From the IMG/VR virus record IMGVR_UViG_2698536312_000002: a stretch of DNA of 18,845 nucleotides, one strand, 5' to 3'. The notes below the pieces were generated by a model. It was given only the letters and a program-made list of their open reading frames with translations. It was not told the origin of the DNA and made no database searches. The stretch is from a virus (lineage: Duplodnaviria > Heunggongvirae > Uroviricota > Caudoviricetes). Shown here in pieces: positions 12,222 to 18,845 of the stretch. Numbering within the stretch: position 1 is the first letter of the stretch; each line of letters begins with the position of its first letter. Both the position numbers and the translations under genes were made by a program.

Positions 12222-12827
12222 TTACACTGGTGTGTTCAGCAAATCGTTAACGGCATCAGATGCCGGGTTACCTGCAGCCAGCGGTGCCGGTGCCCCCTGC
12301 ATCAGACGATCCAGCGCAGTGTCACTGCGCGTCTGTGCACTCTGTGGTGCTGCGGCCAGAATACGGCGGGCCGTTTCCACGGTCATACCGGGGGTTTCGG
12401 CCAGCACGCGTGCCTGTTCTTCGCGTCCGTGAGCCTCCTCACAGTTGAGGATCCCCATAATGCGACTGTTTTCTGCCGCAACCGCTGCGGTGATCTGCGC
12501 GTTCACGTCCGGCTGCGCCGCGCTGGCGTTCTCGCCCTCCGTCGCTTGCACCACGCCAGTAACGTCAGCCTGCGAAGCAGTGGCTGAAACAGTTGTTGAT
12601 TGAGTCTCTTTGGTCATTCGCCCTCCTGAGAGACGGGATTTACGTGCATCCAGTGCATCACGCATGACGGTGATCGCATCGGTACTGTTAACAAGTTCAT
12701 CAGCCAGTCCGGCATCAATGGCCTCCTGACCGCTGTACACTGCAGCCTCGGTATCCAGCACAGCCTGCACGGACAGGCCGGTATATGCCGACACCTTCTG
12801 TGCAAACATCCGGCGGGTTGCATCCAT
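12222..12827 (-). CDS. Nu3: Scaffolding protein Nu3, internal in-frame start within the 3-prime part of C
   Basis: Methionine MDATRRMF lies 201 codons before the C stop, the lambda Nu3 arrangement; this part of the frame is intact. Confidence 0.65.
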   Translation of the reverse strand: MDATRRMFAQKVSAYTGLSVQAVLDTEAAVYSGQEAIDAGLADELVNSTDAITVMRDALDARKSRLSGGRMTKETQSTTVSATASQADVTGVVQATEGENASAAQPDVNAQITAAVAAENSRIMGILNCEEAHGREEQARVLAETPGMTVETARRILAAAPQSAQTRSDTALDRLMQGAPAPLAAGNPASDAVNDLLNTPV

Positions 12828-13502
12828 CCGGGACTGCAATGTTTCCCGGACATCATCCGGTAGATGGCTGTAGGGGTTGCCATCCACCTTATGGCTGCCG
12901 CTGTAAATCAGCGTGATTTCCACGCCCTGTTTCTCCAGTGCAGCGCCGTAATTACTGTGAGCCATCATGACGCCGATGGAGCCTGTCCGGGCGGTCTGCG
13001 TGACCAGACGCCGGGAGGCGGCACTGGCAAGCAGCTGACCTGCGCTGCAGTTCATGTCATTGGCCAGCGCCCATACCGGCTTTATGTCACGCACACGGGC
13101 GATGATGTCAGCGCAGTCAAATGCTCCCGCCACCATTCCGCCCGGTGTGTCCATATCGAGCAGAATGCCGTCCACCATCGGGTCGCTGGCAGCCTGTTGC
13201 AGACGGGCGATAATGCCGTTGTAACCGGTCATCCCCGAGTACGGCTGACCAGCGTGCCGGACACCGGCAGCACGGCGATGCCGTTCATTACCTGATAACT
13301 GCGGGCCTGTCGTGGTCCGTCATCATCACCGGATAACGCCAGCGCCGCGGGTGCCTCTCCGGCAGTCAGGCTGTCGCCGGATACTGCATCCGTCAGGCAG
13401 CTGATCCCAAGCTGGCCTGCAAGCGCACAAAAGAAAACCCGCGCATAGGCGGGTTCAAGCATCAGCGGCTCATTAAAAGCCATGCTGGCAATATGCGGGA
13501 GA

Positions 13503-13522
<20 letters not shown>
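12222..13522 (-). pseudogene. C: Head maturation protease / scaffold C (lambda gpC homologue), with a frame break near 13232-13250
   Basis: N-terminal part (GTG 13520-13522, AGGAGG upstream, overlapping the B 3-prime end) reads VTAELRNLPHIASMAF...VSGTLVSRTR then stops at 13229. The C-like translation resumes in another frame at QPYSGMTGYNGIIARL. Relative to recalled lambda C, about 6 codons plus 1 nt appear missing at the junction, consistent with a roughly 19-bp deletion between short direct repeats (agccgtac). Confidence 0.8.
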
Positions 13523-17203
<3,681 letters not shown>

Positions 17204-17229
<26 letters not shown>

Positions 17230-17749
17230 TCAGCAACCCCGGTATCAGTTCATCCAGCGCGGCTGCTTTGTTCATGGCTTTGATGATATCCCGTTTCAGG
17301 AAATCAACATGTCGGTTTTCCAGTTCCGGAAAACGCCGCTGCACCGACAGGGGGATCCCGTCGAGAATACTGGCAATTTCACCTGCGATCCGCGACAGCA
17401 CGAAAGTACAGAATGCGGTTTCCACCACTTCAGCGGAGTCTCTGGCATTTTTCAGCTCCTGTGCGTCGGCCTGCGCACGCGTAAGTCGATGGCGTTCGTA
17501 CTCAATAGTCCCTGGCTGGAGATCTGTCTCGCTGGCCTGCCGCAGTTCTTCAACTTCCCGGCGCAGCTTTTCGTTCTCAATTTCAGCATCCCTTTCGGCA
17601 TACCATCTTATAACGGCGGCAGAGTCATAAAGCACCTCATTACCCTTGCCACCGCCTCGCAGAACGGGCATTCCCTGTTCCTGCCAGTTCTGAATGGTAC
17701 GGATACTCGCACCGAAAATGTCAGCCAGCTGCTTTTTGTTGACTTCCAT
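17204..17749 (-). CDS. Nu1: Terminase small subunit Nu1 (lambda gpNu1 homologue)
   Basis: 181 aa, the lambda Nu1 length; N-terminal MEVNKKQLADIFG DNA-binding region; lies immediately next to cosB. Confidence 0.9.
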
Positions 17750-17926
17750 TGTTCATTCCACGGACAAAAACAGAGAAAGGAAACGACAGAGGCCAAAAAG
17801 CCCGTTTTCAGCACCTGTCGTTTCCTTTCTTTTCAGGGGGTGTTTTAAATAAAAACATTAGGTTACGGCGAAGAAGAACGGAAACGCCTTAAACCGGAAA
17901 ATTGTCATAAATAGCGAAAACCCGCG
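17750..17926. promoter_or_regulatory. cosB terminase-binding region with inverted R elements
   Basis: agaaaggaaacgacag (17773-17788) and its inverted copy ctgtcgtttcctttct (17814-17829) flank a spacer; a third related element lies next to the Nu1 start. The sequence is near-identical to the recalled lambda left end. Confidence 0.7.
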
Positions 17927-17938
17927 CGCCTTCCGCCC
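17927..17938. other. cosN position carrying a variant 12-mer (minus-strand GGGCGGAAGGCG instead of lambda GGGCGGCGACCT)
   Basis: Flanks match lambda on both sides (cccgcg on the cosB side, cgtaacctgtcgg on the right-end side), but 6 of the 12 cohesive-end positions differ. Confidence 0.5.
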
Positions 17939-18046
17939 CGTAACCTGTCGGATCGCCGGAAAGGACCCGCAAAATGATAATAATTATCATCTACATGTCA
18001 CAACGTGCATCTACGCCATCAAACCACGTCAAATAATCAATTATGA

Positions 18047-18133
18047 NNNNNNNNNNNNNNNNNNNNNNNNNNNNNNNNNNNNNNNNNNNNNNNNNNNNNN
18101 NNNNNNNNNNNNNNNNNNNNNNNNNNNNNNNNN
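18047..18133. other. Assembly gap of 87 N, flanked on both sides by an identical 53-bp sequence
   Basis: catgtcacaacgtgcatctacgccatcaaaccacgtcaaataatcaattatga occurs at 17994-18046 and again at 18134-18186, which looks like an unmerged contig overlap. Confidence 0.9.
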
Positions 18134-18277
18134 CATGTCACAACGTGCATCTACGCCATCAAACCACGTCAAATAATCAATTATGACGCAGGTATCGTAT
18201 TAATTGATCTGCATCAACTTAACGTAAAAACAACTTCAGACAATACAAATCAGCGACACTGAATACAGGGCAACCTC

Positions 18278-18306
18278 ATGTCAACGAAGAACAGAACCCG
18301 CAGAAC
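18278..18306 (+). pseudogene. Truncated 5-prime fragment (10 codons, MSTKNRTRRT) of the RHH-like small ORF, ending at an ambiguous base and a cosN 12-mer
   Basis: ATG at 18278-18280 followed by codons identical to the start of the complete ORF at 18527; the sequence breaks at n (18307). Confidence 0.5.
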
Positions 18307-18308
18307 NG

Positions 18309-18320
18309 AGGTCGCCGCCC
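18309..18320. other. Canonical lambda cosN cohesive-end 12-mer (minus-strand GGGCGGCGACCT) at the start of right-end copy 2
   Basis: aggtcgccgccc is followed directly by cgtaacc (the lambda right end) but preceded by the truncated ORF rather than cosB. Confidence 0.6.
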
Positions 18321-18526
18321 CGTAACCGGTCGGATCGCCGGAAAGGACTCACGAAATGATAATTATTATCATCTATATAAGGTTTATCACAACATGTGTG
18401 TACGCCATCAAACCACGAGAAATAATCAATTATGACGCAGGTATCGTATTAATTGATCTGCATCAAATTAACGTAAAAGCAACTTCAGATAATACAAATC
18501 AGCAACACTGAATATGGGGAAACATT
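18321..18526. repeat. Lambda right-end segment, copy 2: diverged from copy 1, leads into the complete RHH-like ORF
   Basis: Same block order as copy 1, with substitutions and a short insertion (atctatataaggtttatcacaacatgtgtg). Confidence 0.7.
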
Positions 18527-18712
18527 ATGTCATCAAAGAACAGAACCCGCAGAACAACAACCCGCAACATCCGATTTCCAAACCAGATGATTGAACAAAT
18601 TAACATCGCTCTTGATCTGAAAGGTTCAGGAAACTTTTCAGCGTGGGTTATTGAAGCCTGCAGAAGAAGGCTGTCAACAGAGAGTTCGGGTATGAATTAC
18701 ATAATTAAGTAA
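18527..18712 (+). CDS. Small ribbon-helix-helix-like protein (61 aa), homologue of the small ORF at the lambda right end
   Basis: ATG with GGGGA about 8 nt upstream. The pattern RNIRFPNQMIEQINIALDLKGSGNFSAWVIEACRRRL fits a beta-strand plus two helices as in Arc/CopG-type repressors. Function unknown. Confidence 0.65.
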   Translation: MSSKNRTRRTTTRNIRFPNQMIEQINIALDLKGSGNFSAWVIEACRRRLSTESSGMNYIIK

Positions 18713-18845
18713 CATGGTGTTCACAGAACACGCAGTTACCGGACACATCAGTTTTCCATTCGCTCCCTGGCAGTACAGGCTTCCCCTCTGACGGGATAGC
18801 CTGAAAAAATAACACAGAAAATTATTTGTTATAATTAATATAACT

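Follow-up and report, generated by a model that had tools for sequence, protein, structure and literature searches.

A natural alternative cosN allele beside a lambda-type cosB and the probable scaffold origin of an apparent second right end in a lambdoid prophage

The lambdoid prophage carried by the IMG/VR record IMGVR_UViG_2698536312_000002 (the whole stretch of 18,845 nucleotides analysed here, hereafter the window) presents, next to a lambda-type cosB, a 12-mer that departs from the cosN of lambda, followed further right by a canonical cosN 12-mer and a second copy of the right-end segment. This raises the question of whether the prophage has a mutated packaging site and a duplicated right end, as a previous sequence-only reading had considered, or whether these peculiarities have separate explanations. 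Our analysis indicates that, very probably, two unrelated things adjoin at this locus, a natural cosN allele and a scaffold join that makes the 'second right end'.

Organization of the cos region

The features of the region are the following, from left to right:

15304..17229, minus strand: terL (A), large terminase subunit, 641 aa, intact (from the ORF list, and full length in the TerL comparison)
17204..17749, minus strand: terS (Nu1), small terminase subunit of the lambda type, 181-aa ORF (Pfam Phage_Nu1, E 2.4e-101)
17750..17926, minus strand: cosB of the lambda type (alignments to lambda DE3, PhiR34_1 and Kati)
17874-17889, minus strand: R3 site, AGGCGTTTCCGTTCTT, identical to lambda bp 50-65
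17927..17938, minus strand: variant cosN 12-mer, GGGCGGAAGGCG, which differs from lambda at bp 7, 8, 9, 10 and 12
17939..18046, no strand: right-end copy 1, block 1 (end of contig A), collinear with strain 582 and lambda
17962..17968, minus strand: cosQ of copy 1 (minus-strand sequence GGGTCCT), at the same distance from the nick as that of lambda, -30 to -24
18047..18133, no strand: 87-N scaffold gap with an exact 53-bp duplicate on both sides
18134..18306, no strand: right-end copy 1, block 2 (contig B, 173 bp), which ends inside a YlcI/YnfO-type ORF
18307, no strand: single N at the join of copy 1 and copy 2
18308..18845, no strand: right-end copy 2 (contig C), which belongs to another lineage of lambdoid prophages
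18309..18320, minus strand: canonical cosN 12-mer, GGGCGGCGACCT, part of copy 2
18527..18712, plus strand: complete ORF of the YlcI/YnfO family in copy 2, 61 aa (Pfam PF13132, DUF3950, E 9e-19)

The left arm of the window is of the lambda type and is encoded on the minus strand (A, Nu1, then cosB), and to the right of the variant cosN the sequence is that of a lambda-like right end in reverse complement, including a cosQ (GGGTCCT). The alignment of the complete cosB with that of lambda shows about 8 mismatches in 177 bp, and the R3 site is identical, so that the previously noticed juxtaposition of a variant cosN and a lambda-like cosB is confirmed. The variant 12-mer and its flanks read ACG^GGGCGGAAGGCG^CGC on the minus strand. 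The changed 12-mer had been correctly located on this strand, with a count of six changes out of 12; the number of changed positions is five, C11 being kept.

All the changes fall within bp 7-12, as in right-half variants of cosN, and the left half (GGGCGG) and the bases beside both nicks are those of lambda, which are conserved in lambda-like cos sites. An R3 site at bp 50-65 is found beside a terS of the Nu1 family and a terL, and a 7-bp cosQ is located about 17 bp upstream of cosN (17962-17968, minus strand). By all sequence-level tests, the locus is a lambda-like cos and a member of the known natural right-half cosN variants.

Distribution and expected function of the variant cosN

The deposited phages that are closest to the window (PhiR34_1, Kati and lambda DE3) have the canonical 12-mer. 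GGGCGGAAGGCG with the same flanks is present in the finished E. coli chromosomes 582, ETEC1721, Z1323CEC0019 and AVS0969. A 42-bp probe designed such that each 28-mer in it spans the 12-mer matched 158 of 5426 complete E. coli genomes (about 3%), at 153 chromosomal and 16 plasmid places. These plasmids are 36-62 kb in size, mostly around 46 kb, and the one that we examined, pEC21Z144-46K, matches PhiR46_1 and YDC107_1 across the cos region. PhiR46_1 and YDC107_1 are the two phage records that carry the variant allele, and both correspond to N15-like linear plasmid prophages: telL and telR sites are annotated in the record of PhiR46_1, whose GenBank host field is ECOR13, and YDC107_1 is classified as a Ravinvirus.

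The variant cos 25-mer GGGCGGAAGGCGCGCGGGTTTTCGC was found in 78 IMG/VR contigs and, among GTDB species representatives, in one Escherichia sp. only. We also scanned IMG/VR with the lambda-type cosB context, leaving the six variable bases open. Among the first 120 matches listed, these bases are CGACCT in 112 cases, AAGGCG in 7 and CGACCG in 1; the variant allele represents about 6% of the lambda-cosB-type cos sites in this sample of listed matches, in which we saw no intermediate between CGACCT and AAGGCG. A literature search retrieved no relevant paper for either the 12-mer or the PhiR phage series. Natural cosN variants have reportedly been surveyed by Vahanian et al. in 2017.

Judging from this distribution, GGGCGGAAGGCG beside cosB is a natural alternative cosN allele of lambda-type packaging modules. 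Its presence in 158 of the 5426 genomes and in 78 IMG/VR contigs rules out a private mutation. An error of sequencing or assembly in this draft deserves practically no credence: the region does belong to a gapped draft of low contiguity, but many phage records and independently finished genomes contain the same 12-mer with the same flanks, and an error is rejected because the finished genomes hold this very allele.

One 56-kb metagenomic viral contig (IMGVR_UViG_3300045988_113976, loci L046 and L054) contains the variant cos 25-mer twice and may be a concatemeric or longer-than-unit-length assembly of a variant-cos phage.

Several observations bear on the functionality of the allele. The right ends that adjoin the variant cosN belong to at least 8 different sequence classes. 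The cosQ GGGTCCT and the ACG at the nick are kept in at least 8 right-end classes in which the sequence between them has diverged, a pattern that would be expected under selection for function. This cosQ is present at the same offset in 59 of 87 variant loci, most of the others showing a 1-nt shift of the offset. A full-length TerL is encoded at 47 of 52 variant loci (90%), compared with 46 of 59 canonical loci, and four TerL linked to the variant show 100% identity over 630 aa with TerL linked to the canonical 12-mer. A search for residues that discriminate the two cosN alleles in 94 TerL sequences retrieved none (best frequency difference 0.27). With no separating column and four TerL identical across alleles, co-variation of TerL with the cosN allele is rejected. 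The best whole-window match (95.2%) is AVS0969, in which the head and tail genes are all annotated as intact, and the allele is thus seen in this gene-complete prophage as well as in YDC107_1 and in PhiR46_1, for which the GenBank field names a host.

A terminase positioned on cosB would be expected to nick on either side of the variant 12-mer, producing 12-nt 5′ cohesive ends with the sequence GGGCGGAAGGCG in place of GGGCGGCGACCT. Because the left half, C11, the bases beside both nicks, the spacing between cosN and R3, cosQ and the GC content (10/12) are all unchanged in the variant, the allele is expected to be packaging-competent and to represent no lesion.

It seems very unlikely that the variant 12-mer is a loss-of-function cosN, which would make the prophage and its relatives uncuttable and unpackaged. 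The number of changes could suggest so, since five of the six right-half bases are affected, more than in the published tested variants with which we compared it, but the published asymmetry of cosN is that right-half changes are tolerated (PMC4669245). The prophage of the window is in any case defective in C and J, and that of Z1323CEC0019 has a large deletion; against these signs of decay, the 158 genomes and the 78 viral contigs hold the allele unchanged across many genomic backgrounds, and it occurs in gene-complete prophages such as that of AVS0969 and in N15-like phage-plasmids, including one phage record with a propagation host. The adjoining cosQ is conserved, and TerL is intact in 90% of the variant loci. 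The packaging defect that, in the previous reading, a mutated cosN would add is therefore unsupported: the allele is natural and widespread, changes at bp 7-12 are reported to be tolerated, cosQ, R3 and an intact TerL are kept, and some TerL are identical across alleles. The annotation should be corrected in that the cos of the window appears neither mutated nor packaging-dead.

The defects of the prophage lie elsewhere. Lesions in C and J had already been pointed out, and we confirmed them as frameshifting deletions of 19 bp and 22 bp, respectively; the prophage is defective because of these small deletions rather than because of cos. By comparison with AVS0969, the C (Nu3) gene (minus strand, 12225-13522) has lost 19 bp at around position 13241, where a short GGCTG repeat flanks the deletion. 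The resulting frameshift affects the head protease/scaffold gene, which tblastn splits into frames -2 and -1. In the J gene (minus strand, 1-2156), which is cut short by the left edge of the window, 22 bp are missing at around position 283 between two CCGTCAG direct repeats, again by comparison with AVS0969, and the tail-tip gene is frameshifted after about residue 627.

The apparent second right end

To the right of the variant cosN, an exact 53-bp direct duplicate borders the 87-N run on both sides (17994-18046 being identical to 18134-18186); both the gap at 18047-18133 and this duplicate had been overlooked before. Together with the second N join, they imply that the region consists of three sequence blocks joined by Ns and is therefore no continuous sequence. 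Once the duplicate is merged, contigs A and B follow the sequence of strain 582 collinearly, which makes the 87-N gap spurious.

Copy 1 ends after 9 codons and 2 nt of the YlcI/YnfO-type ORF (ATG at 18278); its truncation in this ORF had been recognized, although placed after 10 codons. The N at 18307 is followed by one base (G) and by the canonical 12-mer (minus strand, 18309-18320), in agreement with the order reported earlier, and the literal junction reads ...CCCGCAGAAC-N-GAGGTCGCC. The canonical 12-mer would be expected by chance only 0.01 times per window, as estimated from shuffles. The two copies of the right end share 87.2% identity (205 of 235 columns, a 7-nt indel included), close to the approximately 90% previously estimated, and copy 2 contains the complete ORF that had been described (61 aa, 18527-18712), whose homologues are named YlcI/YnfO family protein in RefSeq. 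The final 20 nt of contig B recur in contig C at the homologous place (18536-18555).

Copy 2 matches with 99.6% identity over 538 bp a segment present in many E. coli, including BEN2908, ML35 and VR50; the 25 best complete-genome matches listed each show 2-3 nt differences in 538 (99.4-99.6%). In these and other strains, the canonical cosN of the copy-2 type adjoins a different cosB, and the Nu1-family terS found beside it is only 56% identical to the Nu1 of the window. This identifies copy 2 as a right end that belongs to a separate prophage lineage. We found no deposited phage that covers a cos region of the copy-2 type. A cos of the type present in PICIs (cosQ-cosN followed by rpp) was also considered and discarded, there being no rpp gene on the cosB side of copy 2.

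The cosQ of copy 2 (18344-18350) has the minus-strand sequence GAGTCCT (plus strand AGGACTC, with the T at 18349) instead of the conserved GGGTCCT, which is retained in 116 of 119 canonical loci sampled. This change is one of two differences from BEN2908 in a base-by-base comparison, and could be either a termination-defective mutation or a base error.

No complete E. coli genome (0 of 5426) and no GTDB species representative holds the literal junction as one collinear piece. A coverage of at least 80% of the junction was reached at 11 places, all of them in two pieces with the normal order of cosN followed by the ORF and a span of 241 bp. We also compared 207 cos sites of the lambda-cosB type, gathered from all loci retrieved and including the window. 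A second cosN-like site within 2 kb was seen in the window only and at none of the other 206 sites.

The pattern of the sequence in this region points to the right-end duplication being, most probably, a scaffolding artefact. Positions 17939-18845 would correspond to three short-read contigs put together by a scaffolder. Contigs A and B would truly overlap by 53 bp, yet have been set apart by the 87-N gap. Contig C would come from the right end of a second lambdoid prophage, or else be a collapsed repeat extended into that prophage, and the sequence common to both right ends would account for its placement behind contig B with a single N; a scaffolder that links repeats and finds no terminal overlap would leave the pattern seen between B and C. 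The real locus would then most likely resemble that of E. coli strain 582, with a single right end. The region resembles known short-read scaffold joins in three respects: a sized N gap separates contigs that truly overlap (here by 53 bp), a single N separates contigs with a common internal repeat, and the junction is without support in finished genomes. Ns are thus found at joins whose contig ends overlap or share repeats, and the junction is not reproduced in independent assemblies. Two observations complicate the details of this scenario. The overlap of A and B (53 bp) and the end of contig B 20 nt into the stretch shared with contig C argue against one k-mer size, and a collapsed model with a single right end, in which A and B are joined to copy 2 at the 20-mer, finds no complete genome above 96.8%.

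The main alternative, which we regard as improbable, is a genuine rearrangement, in which a partial second right end with its canonical cosN would lie in, or be fused to, the YlcI/YnfO-type ORF of copy 1; it could have originated from tandem or adjacent lambdoid prophages by a subsequent deletion. The sequence as given does read so, but the join falls on an N, and the nearby 87-N gap with its overlapping ends shows that this stretch was scaffolded. Lambdoid right ends are mosaic, and that of Z1323CEC0019 switches within the same 600 bp, but no such duplication exists at the other cos sites among the 207, and the junction is absent from all 5426 complete E. coli genomes and from the GTDB representatives. 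The prophage of the window is decaying through small deletions in C and J, but neither homology nor microhomology matches the exact breakpoint of the supposed rearrangement. In addition, the start of copy 2 lies one base beyond the 12-mer and hence is no terminase-cut end, a single base being weak evidence. Of the three possibilities raised by the sequence-only reading, a rearrangement is therefore disfavoured, and a chimeric join between two lambdoid prophages is favoured by the 99.6% match of copy 2, the N and the 0/5426 result.

Two more specific origins of the junction were examined. A mature virion end as the source of copy 2 is unlikely, the extra base matching an uncut prophage or concatemer (weak evidence, as it concerns one base). 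Microhomology-mediated recombination was discarded, since the shared AACCCGC is 6 nt away from the breakpoint, so that a different product would result from it. With the scaffold join as the preferred reading, the annotation should also be corrected in that the window would have no duplicated right end.

Right ends elsewhere provide two further observations. Z1323CEC0019 (L006, 3040-3500) is a natural mosaic in which the variant cosN is accompanied by a cosQ region like that of copy 1, and which turns copy-2-like about 150 bp in, its YlcI/YnfO protein (WP_001329960.1) being the same as in BEN2908. Recombination between the two families of right ends therefore takes place within a short stretch. 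In AVS0969 (L010, 21960-22010), the homology of the right end to lambda stops directly after cosQ (GGACCC), with unrelated sequence beyond, and this break marks a sharp module boundary.

Possible cohesive-end types and comparison with known phages

The five clustered differences between the two alleles, and the lack of intermediates among the IMG/VR matches listed, raise the possibility of two discrete types that would not anneal to each other. More precisely, GGGCGGAAGGCG might be a second discrete cohesive-end compatibility type in Escherichia lambda-type modules, one that limits productive exchange, a proposal that is speculative and that we ourselves consider doubtful. If it is true, this compatibility type would span chromosomal lambdoid prophages and N15-like plasmid prophages, with TerL, TerS and cosB as for the canonical end. 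Packaging that starts at one allele and finishes at the other would leave a chromosome whose ends mismatch at 5 of 12 bases and which should be unable to cyclise. In this way, the dimorphism could partly hinder productive recombination or cross-packaging among phages that are otherwise nearly identical. A common alternative sticky end that differs by five bases also offers a natural test case for the cohesive-end mismatches that are tolerated.

The layout and spacing of the locus are the same as in the cos of lambda (cosQ-cosN-cosB, with Nu1 and A). The window shares with lambda the R3 site, the cosQ GGGTCCT at -30 to -24, the GGGCGG left half, C11 and the CG beside both nicks, as well as a Nu1 gene (Pfam Phage_Nu1) with an adjacent A gene of 641 aa. 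The difference resides in bp 7-10 and 12 of the cohesive end, which are AAGG.G in the window and CGAC.T in lambda.

Differences at bp 7-12 are common in lambda-like phages (Feiss et al. 2015, PMC4669245). Compared with lambda, cosN is changed at bp 9 and 12 in N15 and at bp 8, 9 and 11 in gifsy-1, and cleavage of cos is not measurably affected by right-half changes: C11G is neutral, unlike the harmful G2C, and cosN-lambda and cosN-N15 serve lambda TerL equally well (PMC4669245). The cohesive end of mEp213/LLS is GGGCGGCGCGCT (PMC12315714), and that of N15 is GGGCGGCGTCCG.

In N15, gifsy-1 and mEp213/LLS, the changes are restricted to bp 7-12, like those of the window allele, which shares T12G with N15. 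The window allele has five changes, whereas these described examples have two or three. The lambda terminase is not specific for one cosN, and here too identical TerL adjoin both alleles. That the two alleles share terminases agrees with published work, in which the right half of cosN is regarded as able to vary freely.
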